Shown one piece after another: positions 2 to 14,286 of a stretch of 64,000 nucleotides of DNA. Origin of the DNA: an uncultured delta proteobacterium (GTDB taxonomy: Bacteria > Myxococcota_A > Polyangia > Polyangiales > Polyangiaceae). The stretch spans positions 256,001 to 320,000 of the forward strand of contig CAWAIF010000003.1 of assembly GCA_963782055.1 (NCBI GenBank), in the 5' to 3' direction. The position numbers and the translations under genes were made by a program. Position 1 is the stretch's first letter. Each line of letters begins with the position of its first letter. The notes under the pieces were generated by a model, which was given only the letters and a program-made list of their open reading frames with translations, did no database searches and was not told the DNA's origin.

Positions 2-706
2 TCCATCCCGCCGCCGCGCAGCCTGCTGGACGGCAAGGCCCACAAGGTCTTCGCCTACGGCATCGACTCCAGCCCGCAGGGACAGAACGCGCAGCTGAGC
101 ACCTCTCCGAAGAGCTTCACCTGCAAGGCGCCGGCGATTCCGGATGGCACCATCCGCCGGTGGGTCACCAACCCCAAGTCCTTCGCCGCCTGGAAGTTCG
201 ACGCCTTCACCGAGGTGGCGCACTACGCCGACGCGACGCTGAGCGCCGTGCCGAAGGGCGCCGACGCGCCGGCCGCGCCGGAGCTGGTGCAGGGCGACGA
301 CGGCTCGCCGGCGGTCTACGTGATGGACGGCGCGAGCAAGCGGCACGTGACCGACCCGGTGTCCTTCGCCGCGTGGGGCTTCGACTGGGGCGCCATCAAG
401 AAGGTGCCCGCCGCGCAGCTCGACGCGGCGGCGGTGGGCCCCGACTGGCCGGCAGCGCCGCTGCTGGTGCAGGGCTCCGGGCCGGAGGTGGACATGCTGG
501 ACGTCGCGCCGCCGACGGTGGACCCCGGCGGTGCGTCCGGCAGCCCGGGCAACCCGGCGGACCCTGGCTCCTCCGGCGGCGCGGGTGGCACGACGCAGCA
601 GGGCGCGGGTGGCTGCAACGCGGGCGCGGGCGGCGCGGACGGCGCAGGGGCGATGCTCCTGGGACTCGCCATGGTCCTCGCGACGCGCCGCCGTCGCGCG
701 GCGTAG
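2..706 (+). CDS. Secreted protein with C-terminal MYXO-CTERM sorting signal (5' partial)
   Basis: Frame is open from base 2 (SIPPPRSLLDGKAHKVFAYGID...). Two related motifs, RRWVTNPKSFAAWKFD and KRHVTDPVSFAAWGFDW. Ends GGC-x-G/A-rich, hydrophobic stretch, RRRR (GGCNAGAGG...MLLGLAMVLATRRRRAA). Confidence 0.8.
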   Translation, partial: SIPPPRSLLDGKAHKVFAYGIDSSPQGQNAQLSTSPKSFTCKAPAIPDGTIRRWVTNPKSFAAWKFDAFTEVAHYADATLSAVPKGADAPAAPELVQGDDGSPAVYVMDGASKRHVTDPVSFAAWGFDWGAIKKVPAAQLDAAAVGPDWPAAPLLVQGSGPEVDMLDVAPPTVDPGGASGSPGNPADPGSSGGAGGTTQQGAGGCNAGAGGADGAGAMLLGLAMVLATRRRRAA

Positions 707-1750: not shown

Positions 1751-4426
1751 GTGCTTTCCCGTCGCTTCCTCGCCCTCGCCCCCCTGCTCGTCGCGCTCGC
1801 CTGCACCGAGACTAGCCCCGACTCCTTCGGGCCCCCGCAGCCCGCCGACGACTGCGCCGACTTCTCCACCCCGCAGGGCTTCGTCGACGCGGTCAAGTGC
1901 GACAGCTATCGCTCCTGCGCCTTCCAGTGCTCCTGCACCGAGCCGGAGAAGCCCTACGCGTGCCCGGGCATGCGCCCGTGGGACGCGGTCGCCCACGCCG
2001 GGGCGTGCGGCGCCTTCGACGGCACCACCTACCCGACCGTCGTCCCCGGCAAGTGCACCGCCACCGCGCCGGACCTGGACGCGAAGAAGTACGCCGGCGC
2101 CGACCCCGACGTGCCCGGCCGTTATCACCTCGGCGACGGCCACTTCGTCCAGCCCGCAGGTCACGAGCAGGTGGTGCGCGGCGACGGCATCCGCAGCGCC
2201 TTCCTGGTGGACGCGCTGCTCGTGCCTGGGACGTCCTACGCGGTGCTCGTCGACGCGGGCGTGAAGGACAACGCGGTCTACTCCATCGACCTGGACGCCC
2301 TCGCCGCCGACCAGCCGGCCCTCGTCACCTCCGTCGCCTTCCCGAGGCCGGAGCAGGTGGACTACGGGATGGCGTTCGAGGCGCCGGATCACGTCATCGT
2401 CTCCGGCGCGGGCAACGGCAAGCTCTTCTTTTTCACCATCGACACGCAGACGGGCAAGCTCACGCGCGACGAGGCGAGCGACGTGGACCTCGGGGCCTCG
2501 GTCTCCGGCCGGTCGACGGGCTGGTACTCCGGCGGCCTCGCCGTCACCGCCGACCCGAACAAGCTGCTGGTGGCCGCCGCCACCGACGACACCACCGCGC
2601 GCGTGGTGGATCTCGCGCAGAAGAAGTGGACCACCATCGACGTTGGGCCCGCGCAGGAGTTCTTCGGGCTCTTCGCCGATCCCAACGATCCCAACCAGAA
2701 CACCTACTACCTCACGACGTACGACACCCGGGAGCTGCTGCGTCTGGACCTCGCGAGCGGCAAGGTGTCGGCGCGGATGTCCACCGGGAAGAACCCGGAG
2801 GGCGTCGCCTTCCTCGGCACCACGCACATCGCCGTCGCCAACAGCGACGATGACACCATCGGCGTCTACGACGCCGTCTCCGGGGACGTCGTGCAGACCC
2901 TCTCGGTGCGCCCCGACCCGTCCTACACCGGCGCGCAGCCGGGCGTCCTCGCCTACGATGCCTCCCGGCAGCGCCTCTACGCCACCCTCTCCGGCATCAA
3001 CGCCATCGGCGTCTACGCCTTCGACCAAAGCCAGGGCGCACCGCTCACCCCGCTCGGGGAGATCCCCACCGGCTGGTGGCCCACCGTCCTGCGGCTGCGC
3101 CCCGACGGGAGCCTCTTCGTCGCCAACGCCAAGGGCCGCAGCACCGGTCCGACGAGCACCGACGAGACGCCGGAGGCGATGAAGGGGAGCGTGCAGCTCA
3201 TCCCCGCGCCGAGCGACAGCGAGCTCGCCGACATGACGAAGGTGGTGATCGCGTCGCGCAGCAAGACGCCGGCGGAGGGCTACCCCACCGTCACCTGCCC
3301 GCAGGGCGCGCAGTACGACTTCCCCGTCCCGCTCACCAACGACGCCGGCCCCAGCACCAAGATCCAGCATGTCGTCTACGTCATCCGGGAGAACAAGACC
3401 TTCGACGACCTCTTCGGCGACCTGCCCGACCTCAACGGCGAGCCGAAGGACGTCATGTCGCCCGGCAAGATGGACGAGTACTGGCAGAACGCGCGCGCCC
3501 TCGCGCAGACCTTCACCAACTTCGACAACTACTACATCGCCGCCGAGCAATCGCTGCAGGGGCACGTGTGGACCGCCTACGGCCGCTCCACCGACTGGAT
3601 TGAGCGCACCTGGAGCACCACCTGGGGCCGCGCGGTGCGCCTGCCGCGCGCGGGCATCGAACCGAAGTTCGGCTCGCCGGCGGAGGGGTCGCTCTTCGTC
3701 TGGGCCGACCGCAACCAGATCCCCTACCAGGACATGGGGGAGATCGTCGGCACCGGCGCGCAGGGCTTCGACACCAACTACCCCGGCATCGTCTACAGCC
3801 AGACCGTGCCCGACACCGAGAAGGCCTGCTACCTCGCCGCGCGCGCCCGCGCGACCTGCGATCTGTCCGCGCTCTCCTACGTGGTGCTGCCCAACGACCA
3901 CACCGTCGGCGACACGCCAGGCTCGCCCACGCCGGAGCTGATGATCGCCGTCAACGATGTGGCCACCGGGATGATCGTCGACGCCATCTCGCACTCGCCG
4001 ATGTGGCCGACGACGCTCATCGTCATCACCGAGGACGACCCGCAGGACGGCTACGACCACGTGGACGGCCACCGGACGCCGTTCTTCCTGGCCTCGCCCT
4101 GGGTCAAGCGTGGCTACGTCAGCCACACCGACATCGGCGCCGGGTCCATCCACAAGCTCTTCGCGCACCTCTTCGGCAAGCCTTACCAGAGCGAGAGCGT
4201 GGCCAGCGCGGCCATCCCCTACGACGCCTTCACCAGCACGCCCGACTACACGCCCTACAACTTCAAGCCGCTGGTGACGCCGGTATCGTGCAACCCCTCC
4301 GCCGACAAGATGGGCGGCTCGGGCGGCACGACGCAGCACTGGGACTTCACCTTGCCGGACAACCAGCCGGGCCTCCCCCAGCAGGTGCTGGACCACATGC
4401 GCCACCTGGGCTCCCGGGCCCGCTGA
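1751..4426 (+). CDS. YncE-like beta-propeller + alkaline phosphatase-superfamily phosphoesterase lipoprotein
   Basis: Lipobox ALAC; propeller repeats (TGKNPEGVAF, IPTGWWPT, LFVANAKG); phosphoesterase motifs HVVYVIRENKTFDDLFGD, SLQGH, LPNDHT, EDDPQDGYDHVDGHR. Confidence 0.85.
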   Translation: MLSRRFLALAPLLVALACTETSPDSFGPPQPADDCADFSTPQGFVDAVKCDSYRSCAFQCSCTEPEKPYACPGMRPWDAVAHAGACGAFDGTTYPTVVPGKCTATAPDLDAKKYAGADPDVPGRYHLGDGHFVQPAGHEQVVRGDGIRSAFLVDALLVPGTSYAVLVDAGVKDNAVYSIDLDALAADQPALVTSVAFPRPEQVDYGMAFEAPDHVIVSGAGNGKLFFFTIDTQTGKLTRDEASDVDLGASVSGRSTGWYSGGLAVTADPNKLLVAAATDDTTARVVDLAQKKWTTIDVGPAQEFFGLFADPNDPNQNTYYLTTYDTRELLRLDLASGKVSARMSTGKNPEGVAFLGTTHIAVANSDDDTIGVYDAVSGDVVQTLSVRPDPSYTGAQPGVLAYDASRQRLYATLSGINAIGVYAFDQSQGAPLTPLGEIPTGWWPTVLRLRPDGSLFVANAKGRSTGPTSTDETPEAMKGSVQLIPAPSDSELADMTKVVIASRSKTPAEGYPTVTCPQGAQYDFPVPLTNDAGPSTKIQHVVYVIRENKTFDDLFGDLPDLNGEPKDVMSPGKMDEYWQNARALAQTFTNFDNYYIAAEQSLQGHVWTAYGRSTDWIERTWSTTWGRAVRLPRAGIEPKFGSPAEGSLFVWADRNQIPYQDMGEIVGTGAQGFDTNYPGIVYSQTVPDTEKACYLAARARATCDLSALSYVVLPNDHTVGDTPGSPTPELMIAVNDVATGMIVDAISHSPMWPTTLIVITEDDPQDGYDHVDGHRTPFFLASPWVKRGYVSHTDIGAGSIHKLFAHLFGKPYQSESVASAAIPYDAFTSTPDYTPYNFKPLVTPVSCNPSADKMGGSGGTTQHWDFTLPDNQPGLPQQVLDHMRHLGSRAR

Positions 4427-4618: not shown

Positions 4619-6331
4619 ATGACCCAACCTGCGCAAGGGCCGGAGCGCCTCCTCGGCGCCGAGATCGCCGGCAAGTACAAGATCGTGCGCGTCCTCGGCG
4701 AGGGCGGCATGGGCTGCGTCTACCAGGGCGAGCAGAAGCTCGGCACCACCATCCGCAAGGTGGCGATCAAGACGCTGCACGAGCACCTCTCCCACGATCC
4801 CAAGATCCTCGCCCGCTTCGAGCGGGAGGTGGGCACCGTCGCCGGGCTGCAGCACCCGAACACCATCCAGGTGTTCGACTTCGGCAACATGGACGACGGC
4901 ACGCTCTACATCGTGATGGAGTTCGTCGAGGGGCAGAGCGTCGCCACCGTGCTGGAGACCACCGGCGCGATGGAGCCTGCCCGCGTGCAGAAGATCATGG
5001 AGCAGGTGTGCGGCTCGCTGGAGGAGGCGCACAAGCAGGGCATCGTGCACCGTGACCTGAAGCCGGACAACATCGTGCTCTGCGAGCGCGCCGGGCAGAA
5101 GGACTGGGTGGAGGTCCTCGACTTCGGCATCGCCAAGCGCTCCACCGAGGTCGATGCCCAGGAGCAGAAGCTCACCCAGCAGGGCATGGTGCTCGGGACG
5201 CCGCCCTACATGAGCCCGGAGCAGTTCACCGGCAAGCCGGTGGACAGCCGCAGCGACATCTACGCCCTGGGCGTGATGGCCTACGAGATGCTCACCGCCG
5301 AGCTGCCCTTCAGCGGCAACACGGCGTGGGAGTGGGCGACGGCGCACATGACGGCCCAGCCCCGGCCGATGGACACCATCCCCATCGCGGGGCGCATCCC
5401 CCCGGCGATGAAGGCGGCGATCACCCGTGCCCTGGAGAAGGAGCCGAACAACCGCTTCGCCACGGTGACGGAGTTCTATCAGGCGTTCTCCGGCGGCGGC
5501 CACGTCGCGGCGATGCCGGCGCACACCGCGGCGATGGCGGCCGGCGGCGCGATGGCGGCCGGCGGCGGCGCGGGCTTCGGGCGCGGCCAGACGCAGGTCG
5601 GCGGACCCATCGAGCCTCCCCCCGGGACCGGCGGCTTCGGTGCGCCGATGGCGACGCCCCCTGGCGGCACGCCGATGGGGCCGCCCGTCTCCAACCCCTA
5701 CCAGGCCGCCGGCGTGAACGCGCCGATGGGCGGCGGGCCGTACGGCACGCCTGCGCAGGGCAACCAGGCGTACACGCCGCAACCCTTCCCGCAGGCGCCG
5801 CAGATGCAGCGCAAGAAGGGCGGCGGCGGGCTGATCATCGCGCTCATCGCGCTCGGCGGGCTGCTCTCCGTCGGCGCGCTCGCGGCGTACTTCATCACCA
5901 GCCACAGGAGCAGCAGCGGCGGCGAGACGGTGGACACCTCCACCGCGGCGACGGACACCGGCATCCCGACGACGACGCTCACCGGCGCGACGACCGCCAC
6001 GACGGCCGCGCCCACCGACACCGGCACCGCCGCGCCGCTGGCCTCGCTCAACGCGACGACGACCCACACCAACCCGCCGCCGACGGCGCACGCGACGACG
6101 ACGCACCCGACGGCCACGGCGACGACGCATCCGACGGCGACGGCGACGGCGACGACGCATCCGACGGCCACGGCGACGACGCCCACCGCCACCGCGACGG
6201 CGACGACACCCCCGCCGCCCCAGCCGAAGGAGTGCGCGCTCGCTCTGTACATGCACAACCGGCACATCGCGCGCGAGGCGAACCGCCTGAGGGCGATGTG
6301 CATCAGCAAAGGAGGAAGGGCCCCGTGGTGA
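4619..6331 (+). CDS. Membrane Ser/Thr protein kinase with Thr-rich stalk and C-terminal C-x21-C domain
   Basis: LGEGGMGCVY, VAIK, HRDLKPDN, DFG, GTPPYMSPE, SDIYALG; TM helix LIIALIALGGLLSVGALAAYF; Thr-rich extracytoplasmic stalk. Confidence 0.95.
   Translation: MTQPAQGPERLLGAEIAGKYKIVRVLGEGGMGCVYQGEQKLGTTIRKVAIKTLHEHLSHDPKILARFEREVGTVAGLQHPNTIQVFDFGNMDDGTLYIVMEFVEGQSVATVLETTGAMEPARVQKIMEQVCGSLEEAHKQGIVHRDLKPDNIVLCERAGQKDWVEVLDFGIAKRSTEVDAQEQKLTQQGMVLGTPPYMSPEQFTGKPVDSRSDIYALGVMAYEMLTAELPFSGNTAWEWATAHMTAQPRPMDTIPIAGRIPPAMKAAITRALEKEPNNRFATVTEFYQAFSGGGHVAAMPAHTAAMAAGGAMAAGGGAGFGRGQTQVGGPIEPPPGTGGFGAPMATPPGGTPMGPPVSNPYQAAGVNAPMGGGPYGTPAQGNQAYTPQPFPQAPQMQRKKGGGGLIIALIALGGLLSVGALAAYFITSHRSSSGGETVDTSTAATDTGIPTTTLTGATTATTAAPTDTGTAAPLASLNATTTHTNPPPTAHATTTHPTATATTHPTATATATTHPTATATTPTATATATTPPPPQPKECALALYMHNRHIAREANRLRAMCISKGGRAPW
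6040..6220 (+). repeat. Coding low-complexity tandem repeats (TTHPTATA)
   Basis: Repeated acgacgca(c/t)ccgacggc units encoding TTHPTATA(TA). Confidence 0.75.
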
Positions 6332-6726
6332 ACCGAACGCTGCTTTTCGTCCTCGTGGCGGGCGCCGTCGCGCTCGTCGGATGCCGCAAGAAGCTGGACG
6401 TCACCGTGCCGGAAGCGGACGCCGGCGCCGCCGCACCGGTCGCCACAGTCACGGCCGCCGCGGACACCGCGAGCGCGGCGGCGACCGCCGCGACAGACTC
6501 CGTCGAGCCGCTCGCGAGCCTCGCGCCCACCAAGCCGCCGCCCCCGGTGGTCGGCGCGGCCGCGGCCAAGGTGGTCAAGCCCGCCGCCAGCGCGGCCGCC
6601 GCGGCCGCCGCCGCAGGTGGCGAGCCGAAGGAGTGCGCGCTGGCCCGCAAGATGAAGGAAAAGGGCCTGATGCGGGAGTTTGACACCCTGTCGAAGCTCT
6701 GCACGCAGAAGGGCGGAAAGATCTGA
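6328..6726 (+). CDS. Lipoprotein sharing the upstream kinase's C-terminal domain
   Basis: GTGA overlap with kinase stop; GGAGG upstream; MNRTLLFVLVAGAVALVG-C lipobox; Ala-rich stalk; PKECALA...CTQKGG. Confidence 0.85.
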   Translation: MNRTLLFVLVAGAVALVGCRKKLDVTVPEADAGAAAPVATVTAAADTASAAATAATDSVEPLASLAPTKPPPPVVGAAAAKVVKPAASAAAAAAAAGGEPKECALARKMKEKGLMREFDTLSKLCTQKGGKI

Positions 6727-6745: not shown

Positions 6746-9205
6746 GTGAGCGACGACGCGAAGAACGCCACCAAGGGTAGCGAGTACGCGCCGTCCATCC
6801 TCCCCGGCGACCCTGGCGCCCCGGAGGTCGTGGCCGGCCGCTACGAGGTGCTCGGCCTGCTCGGCGTGGGCGGGATGGGCGCCGTCTACAAGGTCCGTGA
6901 CCGCGAGCTGGACGAGGTCGTGGCCCTCAAGATGCTGCGTCGCGACCTCGCCCAGACGCCCGGTATCCTGGAGCGCTTCCGGCGGGAGGTGAAGCTTGCG
7001 CGGCGCGTGACGCACCCCAACGTCGCGCGCACCTACGACCTGGGCGAGCACGGCGGTGACCGCTTCATCACGATGGAGCTCATCGCCGGCGAGTCGCTCG
7101 GCGCGGTGCTGTCACGGCAAGGCCGGCTGAGCCTCACCCGCGCGACGGAGATCCTCGGGCCCGTGTGCGCCGGGCTCGCGGCCGCGCACGCCGCGGGCGT
7201 GGTGCACCGCGATCTGAAGCCGGACAACATCCTGATCGAGGCTCGCGCAGCCCAGCGCAGCGAGCCGAGGATCTCCGGGGGTGTTGGGGGCAGAGGAGTC
7301 GACTCGGCCCCCGGCCCCTCGCGGCGCAGCGGGGAACTGTACGAGCGTGTGGCGATCACCGACTTCGGCATCGCCCGCGCCGAGGAGGGAAGCGGCGCGC
7401 AGCGCACGATGATCCCGGTGGGCACGCCCGCATACATGGCGCCGGAGCAGGTGGAGGCGGCGCCCGACATCGACGCGCGCGCCGACATCTACGCCCTCGG
7501 GGCGATGCTCTACGAGATGCTCACCGGCCAGCTCCCCTGGCAGGGCGACTCGGTCTACGCCGTCGCCGCGATGCGCCTGATGCAACCGCCGCCGGACCCG
7601 CGCAAGCTCCGGCCGGACCTCCCGGACGCCGTCGCCCAGCTCGTGATGCGCTGCATGGCGCGCAGGCCGGAGGACCGCCCGGCGAGCGCGGCGGAGGTCG
7701 CGTCGCGCCTCGCCAGCGTGACGCTGCCCGCCGCCGAGAGCCTCGCCGGCGTATCGCAGCCCGCGCGCGCCGCGCCGGCCGAGGCCGCCGCCACCGACCC
7801 CGGCCACAAGACGGTGGCCGTGCTGCCCTTCCGCAACGCCGGCCCGCCGGAGGACGAGTACCTGGTGGACGGCCTCACCGACGATCTCATCGACGCCCTC
7901 TCCATGACGCCCGGGCTGCGCGTGCGCCCGCGCGGGGTGGTGATGGCGATGAAGGGGACCTCGCGCGACCCGCGCGAGATGGGTCGCGAGCTGGACGTGC
8001 AGGTGGTCGTCGACGGCACGGTGCGCACTATGGGGGACGCGCTGCGCGTCTCGGCCCGCGTCCTCTCGGTGGCCGACGGCTTCCAGCTCTGGGCCCGCCG
8101 CTTCGAGGGGACGCGCAGCGAGGTCTTCCGCATCGGTGACGAGGCGACGCAGGCGATCGCCGGGGCGCTGACCGTCAGGCGTCCTGCCGAGCGCGCGGTG
8201 CTCACCGACCCGGTGGCCGTGGACCTGTACCTGCGTGGACGTCACGAGTACTTCAAGTTCTGGGCGGAGGCGACGGACCGCGCCGCGCACTTGCTGGAGC
8301 AGGCCTACCAGAAGGCACCGGACGACCCGCTCATCATGGCCGGGTACGCGGCGGCGCTCGCGCGGCAGTTCGGTCTGGTGTCCACGCCGGAGCGGCACGC
8401 CCTCGCGCGGCAGGTCGCGGAGCGGGCCGTCGCGGCGGCGCCCAACCTCGGGGAGCCCCACAGCGCGCTGGGCGTCCTCCTCATGCACGAGGGCGACTCC
8501 GCCGGCAGTGCGCGGGAGGTCCGCCAGGCGATGCTCCACGCGCCCACCCTGGCCGACGCCTTCGACCAGGCCGCGCGGATGGCGAGCGAGACCGGACCCC
8601 TGGAGGCGGCCCTCGAGCTGACGCGCAGGGCAATCCAGCTCGAGCCGCGGCTCACCCACCTGCGTTACAACTGTCAGCTGCGCGCCTTCGCGCTCCGTGG
8701 GGAGTGGGACGAGGTGGAGAAGCTCACCGCGATCGTCCCGGTCGACTCCGACGAGGCCAACCTCTACTGGGTCAGCCGCGTGCGCACGGCGACGTGGCGC
8801 CGCGACCCGGCGGTCGCCGCCCGCATCCTGCACGAGATGGAGGGCGCGCCGCCCTTCAGCTTCTCCGGCATGGTGCAGGGCTTCTGCAACGCCATCTCCT
8901 CGCGCACGCTGCCGCCGGCGGTCCGGCAGATCTTCGTGCAGCGAACGAAGGACCCGGGCGCCACCGCGCGCACGCGCGCCTTCTTCCACCAGCTCCTCGC
9001 GGAGATGCTCGGCTACCTCGAGGACACCGACGCCGCCCTGCAGACGGTCGAGGGCGCGGTGAACGAGGGCCTGTTCGACGTGGTGTGGATGGACATGTGC
9101 CCCATCCTTGACGGCGTCCGCACGCGCCCCCGCTTCGCCGAGCTCCGGGCGACGGTCGCCGAGCGCGCCGACCGCGTGCGCGCCGAGCTGCTGGGCCCGG
9201 GCTGA
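6746..9205 (+). CDS. Ser/Thr kinase with TolB-N-like domain and TPR repeats
   Basis: LGVGGMGAVY, VALK, HRDLKPDN, DFG, GTPAYMAPE; VAVLPFRN...DGLTDDLIDALS module followed by helical TPR-like region. Start GTG 6746 is estimated. Confidence 0.92.
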   Translation: MSDDAKNATKGSEYAPSILPGDPGAPEVVAGRYEVLGLLGVGGMGAVYKVRDRELDEVVALKMLRRDLAQTPGILERFRREVKLARRVTHPNVARTYDLGEHGGDRFITMELIAGESLGAVLSRQGRLSLTRATEILGPVCAGLAAAHAAGVVHRDLKPDNILIEARAAQRSEPRISGGVGGRGVDSAPGPSRRSGELYERVAITDFGIARAEEGSGAQRTMIPVGTPAYMAPEQVEAAPDIDARADIYALGAMLYEMLTGQLPWQGDSVYAVAAMRLMQPPPDPRKLRPDLPDAVAQLVMRCMARRPEDRPASAAEVASRLASVTLPAAESLAGVSQPARAAPAEAAATDPGHKTVAVLPFRNAGPPEDEYLVDGLTDDLIDALSMTPGLRVRPRGVVMAMKGTSRDPREMGRELDVQVVVDGTVRTMGDALRVSARVLSVADGFQLWARRFEGTRSEVFRIGDEATQAIAGALTVRRPAERAVLTDPVAVDLYLRGRHEYFKFWAEATDRAAHLLEQAYQKAPDDPLIMAGYAAALARQFGLVSTPERHALARQVAERAVAAAPNLGEPHSALGVLLMHEGDSAGSAREVRQAMLHAPTLADAFDQAARMASETGPLEAALELTRRAIQLEPRLTHLRYNCQLRAFALRGEWDEVEKLTAIVPVDSDEANLYWVSRVRTATWRRDPAVAARILHEMEGAPPFSFSGMVQGFCNAISSRTLPPAVRQIFVQRTKDPGATARTRAFFHQLLAEMLGYLEDTDAALQTVEGAVNEGLFDVVWMDMCPILDGVRTRPRFAELRATVAERADRVRAELLGPG
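7241..7345. repeat. In-frame palindromic insertion within kinase domain
   Basis: About 30-35 extra codons between HRDLKPDNILIE and RVAITDFG, atypical A/T-ending codons, and hairpin GGGGGC-A-GAG-(7 nt)-CTC-G-GCCCCC at 7286-7312. Confidence 0.55.
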
Positions 9206-9215
9206 GCCCGCCGCG

Positions 9216-9641
9216 TCACTCCGGGTAACCGCAGGCCGCGGCGACGCCCGTCATCGAGCTGCAGCTCGGGCAGGCGGCGTACTTCACCTTGCCGTCGATC
9301 TGCCCGTTCTTCTTGCACACGCAGTAGGCGCCGGGACACTGGCAGTCGACCTCGTAGTCGACCGCGCCGCACGTCCACGTCTCGTTGCTCCCGCACGAGC
9401 CGTCGGACCCCGCGTACCCGGTGCCGTTCTTCGGCCCGCACTGCGGCGGCGGGGGCGGGGGCTTGCCGGCGTCGACCGGCTGGGGTCCGCCGTCCTTCAC
9501 GATGATGCCGGAGTCGGGGGTGCCGCCGTCCTTGTTGGTGACGCCGCCGTCGGCGCCGCCGTCGCCCTGACCGGCGACCTTGCCACCGCACGCGGGGAGG
9601 ACGAGCACCAAGGAAAGAAGAAGAAAGGACGTGCTTCGCAT
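9216..9641 (-). CDS. Small Cys-rich lipoprotein
   Basis: MRSTSFLLLSLVLVLPA-C lipobox, DGG/DAG linker, Cys-rich C-terminal domain ending ACGYPE. Confidence 0.75.
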   Translation of the reverse strand: MRSTSFLLLSLVLVLPACGGKVAGQGDGGADGGVTNKDGGTPDSGIIVKDGGPQPVDAGKPPPPPPQCGPKNGTGYAGSDGSCGSNETWTCGAVDYEVDCQCPGAYCVCKKNGQIDGKVKYAACPSCSSMTGVAAACGYPE

Positions 9642-9686
9642 GTCCATGCGCATACCACGAGTTGGATCTTCGTGCCCTCCGGGGTC

Positions 9687-12600
9687 TCAGGTCTTCAGGC
9701 ACCCGGCCAGGTCGGCGAGGAGGGTCTCGGCGTTGGCGAGCCCGCTCGCCGTGCCGTCGAAGCGGCGGACGAGGCGCATGTCCGGCGTGAGGCGGTAGGG
9801 GCTCTTCGGCGCCCGCACCATCGCGGCGATCTTGGCCGGGTCGAGCGGGGTGTCCTCCCGCAGGTGCAGCGTCACCGATCGGGAGGTCGCCTCGCAGCCG
9901 AGCACGCGCAGGCGCCGCAGCTCCGTCTTGAGGGTCATGAGCTGCACCAGCCGCCGCGCCTCCTCCGGCGGCGGTCCGAAGCGGTTCTCCATCTCCTCGG
10001 CGAGCTCGGCGACCTGCCCCTCGTCCACCGCGCCGGCGAGGCGCTTGTACAGCGAGAGGCGCACGCCCACGTCGCCCACGTAGTCCTCCGGCAGCAGGGC
10101 CGAGACGTCGAAGGAGAGCTCCGGGTCGACCTCGTGCACCACCTCCTCGCCGCGCAGCTCCTGGACCGCGTCCTCCAGCATGTGCACGAAGAGGTCGAAG
10201 CCCACGCTCGCCACCGTCCCGGACTGCTCGGCGCCGAGCAGGTCGCCCGCGCCGCGCAGCTCCAGGTCGAGCGAGGCGATCTGGAAGCCGGAGCCCAGCG
10301 CGGTGTGGCGCTCCAGCGCCTCGATGCGCGCGCGCGCGTCGTCGGTCATCTGGTTGGGAGGCGGAACCATCAGGTAGCAGTACGCGCGCTCCTTCGAGCG
10401 GCCGACGCGCCCGCGGAGCTGGTAGAGCTGCGCCAGGCCGAAGAGGTCGGCGCGGTCGATGACGATGGTGTTGGCGCGCGGGATGTCCAGCCCGCTCTCC
10501 ACGATCGCCGTCGCCACCAGCACGTCGTACTTGCCGTCGACGAAGTCGATCATGGTGCGCTCCAGCGCGCCGCTCGCTCCCTCCCTGGTGGCGCGCGTCA
10601 TCTGCCCGTGACCCACGGCGATGCGCGCTTGCGGCACCAGCCCTTGCAGCCGCTGCGCCCGCTCGTAGATGCCCTCCACGCGGTTGTACACGTAGAAGAC
10701 CTGGCCGCCGCGCGCGAGCTCGCGCTCCACCGCCTCGCGCACGAGCTGCTCGTCGAAGCGCGAGACCACCGTGCGCACCGCGCGCCTGTCCGCCGGGGGC
10801 GTGGTGATGAGGGACAGATCGCGCAGGCCGCCCACCGCCATCTGCAACGTGCGCGGGATGGGCGTCGCGGTGAGGGTGAGCACGTCCACGTGCTTGCGGA
10901 GCTGCTTGATGCGCTCCTTGTGCACGACCCCGAACCGCTGCTCCTCGTCGACGACCAGCAGGCCCAGGTGCTTGAAGTGCACGTCCTTGGAGAGCAGGCG
11001 GTGGGTGCCGATGACGACGTCCACCTTGCCCTCCTTGAGGCCGAGGAGCGTCTCCTTGTGCGCCTTGTCCCCCTGGAAACGGGAGAGGGCGCGCACCGTC
11101 ATCGGGTAGTCGCGCAGGCGCGCCTCGAAGGTGCGGTAGTGCTGCTGCGCGAGCACCGTCGTGGGGCAGAGCACCGCCACCTGCCGGCCGTCCATCGCCG
11201 CGCGGAAGGCGGCGCGGATGGCCACCTCCGTCTTGCCGAAGCCGACGTCGCCGCACACCAGCCGGTCCATCGGGCGCGGCGACACCAGGTCGTCCATCAC
11301 GTCGTCGATGGCCTTGGCCTGGTCGGGCGTCTCGTCGAAGGGGAAGGTCGCCTCGAAGGCGCGGTAGTCGTCGCCCGCGGGCTCGATGGGCGGGCGGTGC
11401 TCGGCCTGGCGCTCGGCGTAGAGGCGCAACAGCTCGTCGGCCATCTTGCGGACGGCCTTCTTCGCCCGCGACTTGGTCTTGGCGAAGGTGGAGCCGCCCA
11501 GGCGATCCAGCTTGGGCGTCGAGCTCTCGCCGGCGGCGTACTTCTGGATCTGGTTGAGGCGGTAGACGGGCAGGTAGAGCTTGTCGCCGCTGTCGTAGTC
11601 GACGACGAGCAGGTCGACCGTCAGGCCGCCGACGTCCTTGTGCACCAGGCCCTGGTAACGGCCGATGCCGTGGTCGACGTGCACGACGTAATCGCCGACG
11701 GCCAGCGTGCGAAGGTCCTCCACGAAGGCGTGGGCCGCGCTCTCCTCGGAGCGCTTCTCTCGCCGGCGGGTGCGTGCGCCGAAGACCTCCTCCTCGGTGA
11801 CCAGGACCAGGCCGTCCGCCGGCAGCAGCACGCCCTGCGAGAGGGGGCCGACGACGACCTGCGCCGTCTCGCGCGCGGCGTCGTCCTTCAGCCACGCGGG
11901 ATCGAAGGGGCCGAGGCGCGGCTGGCACGCCACGCCCTGGTGGCGCAGCAGGCTCGCCAGGCGCTCCGCCTGCGTCTCGGCGCGCGCGGCGAGAAAGACG
12001 CGCAGGCCGTGGGCGCGCCAGTACGCGATGCGCCGGACGAGCGGCGCCAGGGTGGCGCCCTTGCCCTTCTGCGCGCGCGCCGCCTTCACCGCGCGGCCGA
12101 GGTCCTCGTGACCGCGGGCGGCGACGTCGAGGCTGGCTGGGCCGGCGGGTGTGTCGCCCCCTGTCACCTCGTACGCCGCGAGCCCCTCCTCGCTCCCGAG
12201 CTGCGCCACGCGATGCAGCGCGACCACGCGGCGCGCGGCGAGCGCCTCGGTCAGCGCGTCCTCTCCGGTAAAGAAGGTGGTAGGCAGAAAGTGCGGCGAC
12301 GACGACTTCCCGGCGACGTCGCGCTCGGCGGACTCCAGCGCGCCGCGCACGGCCTGGGTGACGCCGGGCGGGTCGCAGAGGACGACAATCGCGTCGTCCT
12401 GGACGTAGGCGAAGAGCGACTCGAGCTCCGGATAGTAGGCGGGGAGCATGCCGTCGGCGCCGAAGAAGGCGCGTCCGGTACACACGTCGTCGATGAGCGC
12501 GCGCGCCCGTGTCGTCGGCATGTCGATGGCGTCGGCGAGCTGCTGCAGGCGGTCCTTCGCGCGGGCGACGCGCTCGCGGGTGAGGATGGCCTCGCGCGCG

Positions 12601-13436
12601 GGGGCGAGGCGCACCTCCGGCAGGAGCAGGTCCTTCTTCTCGCCGTCCAAGTCCACGCGGCGGGTCGTCTGCTCGTAGGGGTCGAAGGGCTTGATGGTCA
12701 GCACCAGATCGCCGTACAGCTCGACGCGCACCGGGCCTTCCAGGTTGGGCGGCCACACGTCGAAGAGCGCCCCGCGCACCGCGAAGGTCCCGGGGTCCTC
12801 CACCACCGGCACGCGCAGGTAGCCGCACTCGGAGAGACGGTGGATGAGCGCGTCGCGGTCCAGCTCGTCCTCGGCCAGGATGCGGGCGACGTGCTCGCGC
12901 ACCGCCTTGCGCGGCACCAGCTTGCGCGTGAGCGCCACCGCCGGCACGACCAGCGCCCGGTACGGTCGGCCCTCCGCCAGGTGGGCGAGCGTCGCCATGC
13001 GGCTCATCGCCGCGCGGCGGTCGGGGTTGACGTCGGCGTAGGGCGAGGTGTCGTCCACCGCGAGCACCAGCACGTCGCCCTCGCCGGTGTCCTCCGCGTC
13101 GGGCTCGTCCGCCGTGCTGCGCAGCAGGAAGCCGACGTCCTCGGCCAGCTTGCGCGCGGCGTCCAGGTCGGCCGTGACCAGCACGACGGGACGCGAGGAC
13201 GCGCCCGCCACCGTCGCGGCGATCGCCGCCGCCGCGCCGCCGTGCACGCCGGAGACGTCCAGCCGGCCGCGCGGGGCCTCCGTCGCGCGCGCGGCCACCT
13301 CCGCCAGGGTGACGGCGCGCACGCCCTCCGGCGGCAGGATGGGGCCCAGCGGGTCCGCCGCGTCCTGGATCTCCGGCGGGATCTCGTCCGGGAGCCCGTG
13401 ATCTCCCAGGGTGCTGGTCAGCTCGTTCGGCGCCAA
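9687..13436 (-). CDS. mfd: Transcription-repair coupling factor
   Basis: FAVRGALFDVWP (UvrB-like), VHVDHGIGRYQG (CarD/RID), CGDVGFGKTEVA, VDEEQRFGV, TATPIPRT, QLRGRVGR, DLELRGAGDLLG, TRCF C-terminus. Start approximate (TTG 13436). Confidence 0.97.
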   Translation of the reverse strand: MAPNELTSTLGDHGLPDEIPPEIQDAADPLGPILPPEGVRAVTLAEVAARATEAPRGRLDVSGVHGGAAAAIAATVAGASSRPVVLVTADLDAARKLAEDVGFLLRSTADEPDAEDTGEGDVLVLAVDDTSPYADVNPDRRAAMSRMATLAHLAEGRPYRALVVPAVALTRKLVPRKAVREHVARILAEDELDRDALIHRLSECGYLRVPVVEDPGTFAVRGALFDVWPPNLEGPVRVELYGDLVLTIKPFDPYEQTTRRVDLDGEKKDLLLPEVRLAPAREAILTRERVARAKDRLQQLADAIDMPTTRARALIDDVCTGRAFFGADGMLPAYYPELESLFAYVQDDAIVVLCDPPGVTQAVRGALESAERDVAGKSSSPHFLPTTFFTGEDALTEALAARRVVALHRVAQLGSEEGLAAYEVTGGDTPAGPASLDVAARGHEDLGRAVKAARAQKGKGATLAPLVRRIAYWRAHGLRVFLAARAETQAERLASLLRHQGVACQPRLGPFDPAWLKDDAARETAQVVVGPLSQGVLLPADGLVLVTEEEVFGARTRRREKRSEESAAHAFVEDLRTLAVGDYVVHVDHGIGRYQGLVHKDVGGLTVDLLVVDYDSGDKLYLPVYRLNQIQKYAAGESSTPKLDRLGGSTFAKTKSRAKKAVRKMADELLRLYAERQAEHRPPIEPAGDDYRAFEATFPFDETPDQAKAIDDVMDDLVSPRPMDRLVCGDVGFGKTEVAIRAAFRAAMDGRQVAVLCPTTVLAQQHYRTFEARLRDYPMTVRALSRFQGDKAHKETLLGLKEGKVDVVIGTHRLLSKDVHFKHLGLLVVDEEQRFGVVHKERIKQLRKHVDVLTLTATPIPRTLQMAVGGLRDLSLITTPPADRRAVRTVVSRFDEQLVREAVERELARGGQVFYVYNRVEGIYERAQRLQGLVPQARIAVGHGQMTRATREGASGALERTMIDFVDGKYDVLVATAIVESGLDIPRANTIVIDRADLFGLAQLYQLRGRVGRSKERAYCYLMVPPPNQMTDDARARIEALERHTALGSGFQIASLDLELRGAGDLLGAEQSGTVASVGFDLFVHMLEDAVQELRGEEVVHEVDPELSFDVSALLPEDYVGDVGVRLSLYKRLAGAVDEGQVAELAEEMENRFGPPPEEARRLVQLMTLKTELRRLRVLGCEATSRSVTLHLREDTPLDPAKIAAMVRAPKSPYRLTPDMRLVRRFDGTASGLANAETLLADLAGCLKT

Positions 13437-13485
13437 GACAGCGCAGGACTTAGGTGACCGGCGCCCTCCGCGCAACCCTGCAGGA

Positions 13486-14286
13486 TCAGAGCGTCGGCGA
13501 CCACATCGTCGCGCTGCCGTTGGGCATGGTCGGCGTGCGCAGCCAGAGCTCCAGCGCGACCTCCTTGGTGCCGCTGCCCTTGAAGTACTCGAGGCGGAAG
13601 GTGTGCCTGCCGGCCGTCCAGTTGAAGGTGCCCTGCTGGTAGTGCACGCCGCGCAGGCCGTCGTTGTCGAGCACGAGCTGGCCGTCGACGTAGACCCTGG
13701 CGCCATCCTCCGAGCCGATGGCGAGCCAGTAGCTGCCCGCGGCGGCGACGGTCATCGTGCCGTCGTAGCGGATGGCGAAGTCGTTGGTGTGCAGCGCACC
13801 GCCGTAGCTGAAGCCGCGGAACTCCTGCGGGGCGGAGGTGAACTGCCGGGTGAAGAGGGCGAGCTCCGGCTTGAGGGTGCCCAGGTCGGGCAGGCGCTGC
13901 GTGTTGGGGGGGAGGCTGTAGACGAAGCCCTGCAGGGAGTCGGCCGCCTGCTGGTCGCTGCCGAAGATGCTGCTGCCGCTGATGGTGGGCACCTGCCCGA
14001 CGGCGGGGTGGGCGACGTTGGCCACGTGCTTCATCGCCCCGCGATACCGGGCCGTCGACGCCATCCGGATGTGCGCGACGGGGCTGGTGGTGGTGGGCGG
14101 GTTGGTGTTGGCGGTGCTGGCGGTGGCGGTGGGGGCCGGCGTGGGGTTGGTCGTCGCCACGGTGGGCTGCGGAGGCGGCGGGTTGGTCGGCGCGTTGGCG
14201 CCCTCCCCGGTGCGCACCTGGACGTGGCACGCGGCGGTGGCGAGGACGGTGCTGGCGGCGAGGAGGAGTACGGCAGAGCTGCGCAT
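13486..14286 (-). CDS. PA14-domain lipoprotein
   Basis: Lipobox TAAC, Pro/Thr linker, PA14 motifs FAIRYDG...SEDGARVYVDGQLVLDNDGL...FRLEYF. Confidence 0.85.
   Translation of the reverse strand: MRSSAVLLLAASTVLATAACHVQVRTGEGANAPTNPPPPQPTVATTNPTPAPTATASTANTNPPTTTSPVAHIRMASTARYRGAMKHVANVAHPAVGQVPTISGSSIFGSDQQAADSLQGFVYSLPPNTQRLPDLGTLKPELALFTRQFTSAPQEFRGFSYGGALHTNDFAIRYDGTMTVAAAGSYWLAIGSEDGARVYVDGQLVLDNDGLRGVHYQQGTFNWTAGRHTFRLEYFKGSGTKEVALELWLRTPTMPNGSATMWSPTL

Follow-up and report, generated by a model that had tools for sequence, protein, structure and literature searches.

Known bacterial Ser/Thr kinases become active through dimerization, a step that the sensor domain is believed to promote (PMC3601408, partial text). 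The PASTA kinases PknB and PrkC, in the same text, join a Hanks kinase domain through one transmembrane (TM) helix to an extracytoplasmic module thought to promote dimerization or localization. The sensor domain of PknH, a mycobacterial kinase, is also found in four lipoproteins, namely LpqQ, LprH, LppH, and LpqA (PMC4118811, partial text). Myxobacteria have many TM Ser/Thr kinases, and a motif count gives 108 kinase-like open reading frames (ORFs) in the genome studied here.

We analyzed a 64,000-nucleotide stretch of that genome (the window), which encodes a TM kinase, K, and an overlapping lipoprotein, L, with the same kind of small domain at their ends. This terminal two-Cys segment of about 33 aa, with C-x21-C spacing in the window, is called the tail below; relatives are grouped by genus codes (g1, g54, and so on). 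The features of the locus are as follows.

1751..4426, plus strand: upstream beta-propeller and phosphoesterase lipoprotein; no tail; synteny with K holds across g1, g54, and g69
4619..6331, plus strand: Hanks-type Ser/Thr kinase K, transmembrane; ORF of 570 aa
5831..5887, plus strand: predicted single TM helix of K (aa 405-423; hydropathy scan mean 2.5)
6035..6049, plus strand: PLASL stalk motif in K
6218..6328, plus strand: predicted hairpin tail of K, C-x21-C followed by GG, with its Cys codons starting at 6233 and 6299
6310..6315, plus strand: AGGAGG, Shine-Dalgarno (SD)-like site for L, inside Lys-Gly-Gly codons of the K tail
6325..6726, plus strand: lipoprotein L, 132-133 aa; start at 6325 or 6328, TGA stop at 6726
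6508..6522, plus strand: PLASL motif in L
6619..6723, plus strand: predicted hairpin tail of L, with its Cys codons starting at 6634 and 6700
6746..9205, plus strand: second kinase, downstream, with weak FlgO-like and TPR matches; no tail; syntenic in g1, g54, and g69

K has a Pkinase domain (PF00069, Pfam search) at aa 20 to 281 (E = 6.6e-48), and the catalytic motifs VAIK, HRDLKPDN, and DFG were all found. Its predicted topology places the TM helix before a 115-aa Thr/Ala/Pro linker, followed by Cys539-x21-Cys561. This is the architecture of a PASTA kinase, but K has no PASTA match in Pfam and a different ectodomain fold, and a lipoprotein copy is not described for the PASTA kinases in the partial text cited above.

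L may start at the GTG at 6328 or, as in public record P0003, at 6325, and the sequence GTGA at 6328-6331 overlaps its start with the stop codon of K. The lipobox LVG-C, read by eye, has its Cys codon at 6382, and this Cys was invariant in the 7/7 aligned relatives. A conserved N-terminal motif follows, then an Ala/Thr/Pro linker, PLASL, a second linker, and the hairpin. The K and L tails align without gaps and are identical at 15 of 35 residues; the full-length local alignment of the two proteins scored 132, compared with a maximum of 81 among 2,000 shuffles of L, none of which reached the observed score. The preliminary description was thus right that the C-x21-C tail is found both at the kinase end and on the overlapping lipoprotein, and that PLASL is present in both stalks (6035-6049 and 6508-6522). 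L is indeed a lipid-anchored copy of the K ectodomain layout of linker, PL motif, linker, and hairpin. A loose pattern for the PL motif matched 82 of 101 kinase and phosphatase linkers.

The same description pointed to a 19-nt DNA identity between 6222-6240 and 6623-6641. The repeat is present, and extends to 22 nt at 95% identity (6222-6243 and 6623-6644), but it is unremarkable, since contig C3 (7.0 Mb) contains 172 comparable clusters of exact 19-mers recurring 50 to 1,000 bp apart. Where K and L have the same residue, 9 of 14 codons were identical, compared with 9.3 expected from codon usage. The repeat was therefore rejected as a mark of recent copying. A promoter scan at the locus returned no sites, and the one terminator-like site (6325-6343) equaled chance (1.1 expected). 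Shares in sequencing runs were at most 0.11, in scattered short pieces, none of them across the K-L junction.

Other genes near the locus were also recorded. The ORF end at 2-706 (plus strand) has Gly-Cys, a Gly/Ala-rich stretch, a hydrophobic helix, and an Arg run; it has no Pfam match and presumably resembles the C-terminal sorting signals of myxobacteria. Two Cys-rich predicted lipoproteins without Pfam matches flank the locus (761-1690 and 9216-9653, both minus strand). Beyond them, 9687-13706 (minus strand) encodes the transcription-repair coupling factor Mfd (TRCF, CarD, and helicase domains), a gene that also adjoins tailed kinases in several g73, g75, and g78 genomes.

The tail is a real, unnamed, and very small ectodomain family. 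It had not been recognized in the preliminary description, and Pfam and NCBIfam likewise gave no significant family for 53 tails; TPR_4 was touched by 1 of the 53 (Pfam E = 0.04), and the PknH sensor domain gave no Pfam match to K, L, or the 53 tails at an E value of ≤1. An AlphaFold2 model from a 45-row alignment had helices at residues 4-14 and 18-30 (pLDDT 93.2), predicting a TPR-like helical hairpin, and we infer from the two invariant Cys residues at the hairpin ends that it is closed by a disulfide. In the model, length and helix-turn-helix arrangement match the ~34 residues of a TPR. Like a TPR, the tail would consist of two antiparallel helices; unlike a TPR, it usually occurs as a single unit with the two invariant Cys, although tandem copies are also seen, with two in some lipoproteins and three in P0006. 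Top structural matches were mostly TPR-type proteins (rmsd 1.3 to 2.6 Å over 32 to 35 residues), and the best Z score in a wide search, 5.1, is not diagnostic. Foldseek searches of the PDB with the tail returned nothing at an E value of ≤0.001, the ESM Atlas gave no usable match for the tail and only leads below 0.9 for a relative, and a first homologue search with K aa 525-570 passed none of 134 candidates. The literature listings searched, which lack most subscription journals, showed no description of the domain. A tail variant on one g38 kinase type (L063:5896-7605 and L064:790-2529) has two extra Cys residues, located ahead of the first helix and in place of the second Gly, which hint at a further disulfide.

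A profile of the K and L tails found one further gene in the 7.58-Mb window genome, lipoprotein T on contig C2, and a wider profile returned the same three genes (K, L, and T). Within this genome, 1 of the 108 kinase-like ORFs (motif count) bears the tail, and the closest PP2C phosphatase and the closest relative of the second g1 kinase are both without it. That PP2C relative (L201; G000 C3, about 851400-852900) has the PL motif and appears frameshifted between its catalytic domain and TM helix, possibly through an assembly error. T (L001:4966-5490; G000 C2, about 131965-132490, minus strand) consists of a four-Cys helical hairpin, an unnamed module with outer-helix Cys residues also 21 apart, followed by the tail. 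It was found in 13 genomes of g1, g54, and g69, and the four-Cys module also occurs alone in small lipoproteins of ~90 to 140 aa, which number as many as four in one genome and have unrelated surroundings. Both hairpins folded in a model of T, with no confident packing between them (pTM 0.36).

Within the window's family, 91 of 383 genomes gave a match to the tail; the tally counts G537 and G538, unpublished genomes that enter no other result. The verified set comprises 144 tails from 71 of the 91 genomes, in 11 genus codes; G561 and G554 (false or Cys-less) and G099 (an extra Cys defeated the pattern) were dropped, 17 mostly weak genomes also fall outside it, and the count of tails excludes G243 and G207, whose kinase tails look real but have longer spacing, and a false row from G552. 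All verified tails lie within one family, labeled Polyangiaceae in the database. None of 210 genomes from other families of the same order had a tail, and a phylum sample of other families gave weak matches only (5/277 genomes). The best of these was rejected as spurious, a shadow frame over a 455-aa ORF, and the remaining four were partial. A protein search gave 65 matches among 8,000 scored candidates, mostly kinases with three PP2C phosphatases and fragments, and Polyangiaceae was the only taxon label shown.

Among the 144 tails, carriers were kinases (93), L (15), T (13), PP2C phosphatases (13), other proteins (8), and 2 unassigned; the other proteins include a SnoaL-like protein, a lamin-tail-domain protein, and two-copy lipoproteins. 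TM-bearing PP2Cs of myxobacteria are mentioned without such a tail in the available part of PMC2887360. The preliminary description had set against its own reading the case of a common tail on unrelated proteins with no conserved kinase-lipoprotein pairing. The first half of that case is what we found, as the tail also occurs on PP2C, SnoaL-like, and lamin-tail-domain proteins and on other lipoproteins. The second half is not, because the pairing is conserved in 15 genomes.

In these 15 genomes, from four genera (g1, 1; g54, 2; g69, 4; g75, 8), L lies directly behind a tailed kinase. In g1, g54, and g69, L begins in an overlap with the stop of K in 7/7 genomes, and in the same genera an SD-like site was present in the last codons of K in 5/7 cases with an adjacent L versus 0/8 without L. 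The N-terminal motif of L is common to g1, g54, and g69 and matches only the L gene within the genome. The g75 K and L genes are separated, and g75 lipoproteins differ at the N-terminal motif, so that orthology there rests on position and layout. Neighbors of the locus are syntenic in many of the 15 genomes (the phosphoesterase lipoprotein, the second kinase, DJ-1/PfpI or Mfd), which suggests inheritance by vertical descent. A secreted protein of ~200 aa is often directly upstream of the kinase pair (in g75, L145, L149, L155, L161, and others; also in g54). Its g54 copy has no Pfam match, and it is a candidate partner.

No L was seen in 51 of the 66 genomes that carry a tailed kinase, including g76, where none of 22 verified kinase tails is accompanied by L. 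It was also not found in five sister species (G001, G002, G004, G005, and G006; completeness 84 to 98%); in the four resolved at this point, all but G006, the next kinase lies 79 to 110 nt behind K.

In soil myxobacteria related to the window genome, K and L tails tend to resemble each other within a lineage and to differ between lineages. Own-genome identity between K and L tails was 74 to 90% in 6/6 g54 and g69 genomes, and means between g54 and g69 were 50 to 57%. No position of the g54/g69 alignment splits all K from all L tails; four positions split the genera in both proteins. The Cys spacing of L (20 or 21) was that of its own kinases in 15/15 genomes. For a tree of 43 tails, built on 31 columns (a small number given that many rows), the AU test rejected L tails as a single clade (p-AU = 1e-72), and L tails grouped with kinase tails of their own lineage.

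Kinase paralogues behaved similarly. Two tandem paralogue groups of g75 are separate on a kinase-domain tree (a quick tree of 81 of the 93 kinases, window K left out); their tails nevertheless share spacing in 17/18 genomes, 20 in one subclade and 22 elsewhere, and a single clade of paralogue-a tails was rejected weakly (AU test, p = 0.022). Orthologous kinases of G001 and G002 are 94% alike with tails only 52% alike, while unlinked paralogous kinases of these species are 38 to 40% alike with tails 84 to 90% alike (p-AU = 3e-12). Across five g1 species, the kinases are 92 to 96% alike, K tails 29 to 65%, and T tails 71 to 90%. K and L tails thus change together across relatives, two-residue indels included, and unlinked kinases join the matched set. 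These sequence comparisons make lineage-matched (concerted) evolution of the K and L tails well supported. Since kin are not independent, the pattern represents about half a dozen independent lineages, not 15.

Indels in common and a linker repeat shared in G002 point to tails having been physically copied. Silent sites were identical at 125 of 213 positions compared with 112 expected from codon usage, and this closeness to expectation indicates that the copying is old and that the match is held at the protein level. The K-L pairs of G137 and G176 show 5 residue differences and differ at 8 to 11 of 25 silent sites; orthologues differ at 4 residues and 4 to 7 of 26. Old copying followed by separate purifying selection on each gene could also give silent sites near saturation. 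Diversification resembling that of diversity-generating retroelements (DGR-like) was considered and rejected, because 109 of 165 differences in eight matched pairs fell at third codon positions.

The matching is not universal. The window pair is the worst matched of the 15, with 15/31 core residues identical, within the range of between-genome comparisons and no higher than for tails from separate genera. It has a five-residue run, ECALA, unique to this pair among the 144 tails, the window K tail is without the conserved turn Gly, and the tail tree joins the two on long branches flagged with a warning. The K-L match therefore appears largely decayed in the window genome, and the window copy is the least convincing example of the pattern. 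A complex prediction for the two window tails (alignments of 92 and 43 rows) scored 0.02, a value given no weight on either side. The g75 match is looser (57 to 83%, with the own kinase ranked 1 to 9 of 93), and tails of tandem g38 kinases are unmatched (40%). PP2C tails retain the 22 spacing in 6/6 genomes where the kinases show 20, although a single PP2C bears two 20-type tails, and T tails are 61 to 71% identical to T of other genera versus 34 to 55% to their own kinase. PP2C and T tails thus follow their own orthologues, not the local kinase.

The tail would behave like a specificity element, because it would have to stay alike among coexpressed paralogues and may drift between lineages. 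We propose, with a probability of roughly 40%, that the tail is a periplasmic recognition module of K and that L is a cotranslated, kinase-less decoy in the same membrane that tunes K. Recombination would occasionally transfer tails from one paralogue to another, and selection would afterward maintain their likeness, since they would all need to recognize one lineage-specific target, whether one another or a protein ligand in common. Two K tails brought together would activate the kinase by dimerization, as known Hanks kinases would lead one to expect, and L, which has a matching tail but lacks the kinase, would sequester partners or ligand and so set a threshold. In the window genome the K tail may have drifted from that of L, sister species may have lost L, and the pair is probably partly uncoupled.

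Inner-membrane lipoproteins of Myxococcus xanthus had Lys at position +2 in 8 of 12 cases (PMC3222651, partial text). Lys is at +2 in 6/6 L proteins of g54 and g69 and at +3 in g75. L would by this analogy lie beside K in the inner membrane, under a rule that comes from another order and with the window L having Arg, not Lys, at +2. The dispensability of L fits a tuner better than an obligatory coreceptor. Conserved pairing and lineage-matched tails agree with the receptor/decoy or receptor/partner pair of the preliminary description, against which the window pair stands as the worst matched; for contact signaling, also suggested there, no specific support was found.

L could instead act positively, as a coreceptor or scaffold that clusters K, or as an outer-membrane lipoprotein whose tail contacts that of K from across the periplasm and signals the spacing of the envelope. 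The cross-periplasm version is one that we would liken to RcsF and IgaA. Conservation, coupling, and tail matching are what a positive partner would show just as a decoy would, both proteins have long flexible linkers (115 aa in window K; 59 to 105 aa in L proteins with a cleanly called lipobox), and lipoproteins with two or three tails look like scaffolds. We nevertheless consider a positive role unlikely, given that L is not required by most tailed kinases (51/66 genomes without it) and that Lys at +2 would, by the M. xanthus analogy, point to the inner membrane rather than across the periplasm.

Another explanation is that the basic hairpin is a general envelope anchor, binding peptidoglycan or another anionic polymer and so placing whatever protein bears it, with likeness within lineages arising from recopying and not from an action of K and L on one another. 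Mean net charge is +2.4 to +3.4 in all tail classes, K linkers of 44 to 169 aa (median 103) across relatives could reach the wall, the carriers are as diverse as kinases, PP2C, SnoaL-like, and lamin-tail-domain proteins and include tandem tails, and L is missing from most genomes. A conserved polymer, however, should not drive the K tails of five species to 29 to 65% identity while T tails stay at 71 to 90%; the tail is the only domain of L, which would leave a pure anchor no cargo; and the PP2C and T tails are unmatched. We consider a general anchor about as unlikely as a positive partner.

A further and rather improbable reading is that the hairpin is a lineage-specific address by which a myxobacterium would connect kinases, decoy lipoproteins, and further exported proteins in a single recognition circuit. 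Between species this address would drift fast, perhaps under pressure from neighbors, predators, or phage, recombination would resynchronize the members of the circuit, and phosphatase and T tails, bearing other addresses, would be insulated.

It is very unlikely that the pattern is a neutral by-product, with a tail that only caps or stabilizes the stalk, ectopic gene conversion that homogenizes it, and L as a dispensable duplicate of the K 3' end: the physical copying seen in shared indels and the G002 linker repeat, the failure to find L in five sister species, the drift of the window pair, and the slight excess of silent identity (125 versus 112) would fit, but the lipobox, N-terminal motif, coupled start, and SD-like site of L are kept across three genera, the K-L pairs of G137 and G176 differ at 5 residues with 8 to 11 of 25 silent differences compared with 4 residues and 4 to 7 of 26 for orthologues, and the matching is seen repeatedly, across several lineages and between loci that are not linked.

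For the decoy reading and its alternatives, the tail family offers natural controls in matched and mismatched tails, kinases with and without L, and the insulated phosphatase tails. Should specificity travel with the tail, the domain would also provide a minimal orthogonal module for periplasmic pairing.

Among known bacterial systems, a precedent for the layout is mycobacterial PknH, which likewise has a disulfide-containing ectodomain on both a TM Ser/Thr kinase and stand-alone lipoproteins (PMC4118811, partial text). The PknH domain, in the available portion of PMC3601408, is ~190 aa with a ligand cleft, while the tail is ~33 aa and predicted to be all-helical; and unlike the PknH system, the tail lipoprotein lies in one operon with its kinase, and their tails show lineage-matched evolution. 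A receptor ectodomain that evolves in concert with a kinase-less copy is known from animal paired receptors; the literature listings searched, which lack most subscription journals, showed no such case for a bacterial kinase. In mammalian CEACAM proteins, the ligand-binding domains of signaling and decoy members are kept alike within species by gene conversion and diverge between species (PMC2832619 and PMC8860441, partial texts). CEACAM is an analogy only, with an Ig fold, animal hosts, and known pathogen ligands; the tail is a predicted helical hairpin of bacteria. Paralogue ectodomains of the tail family grouped by lineage and not by gene, with AU p values of 1e-72, 3e-12, and 0.022 and a weak signal for the window pair. 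If the tail is indeed read as an address, this family would be a bacterial counterpart of animal paired receptors.
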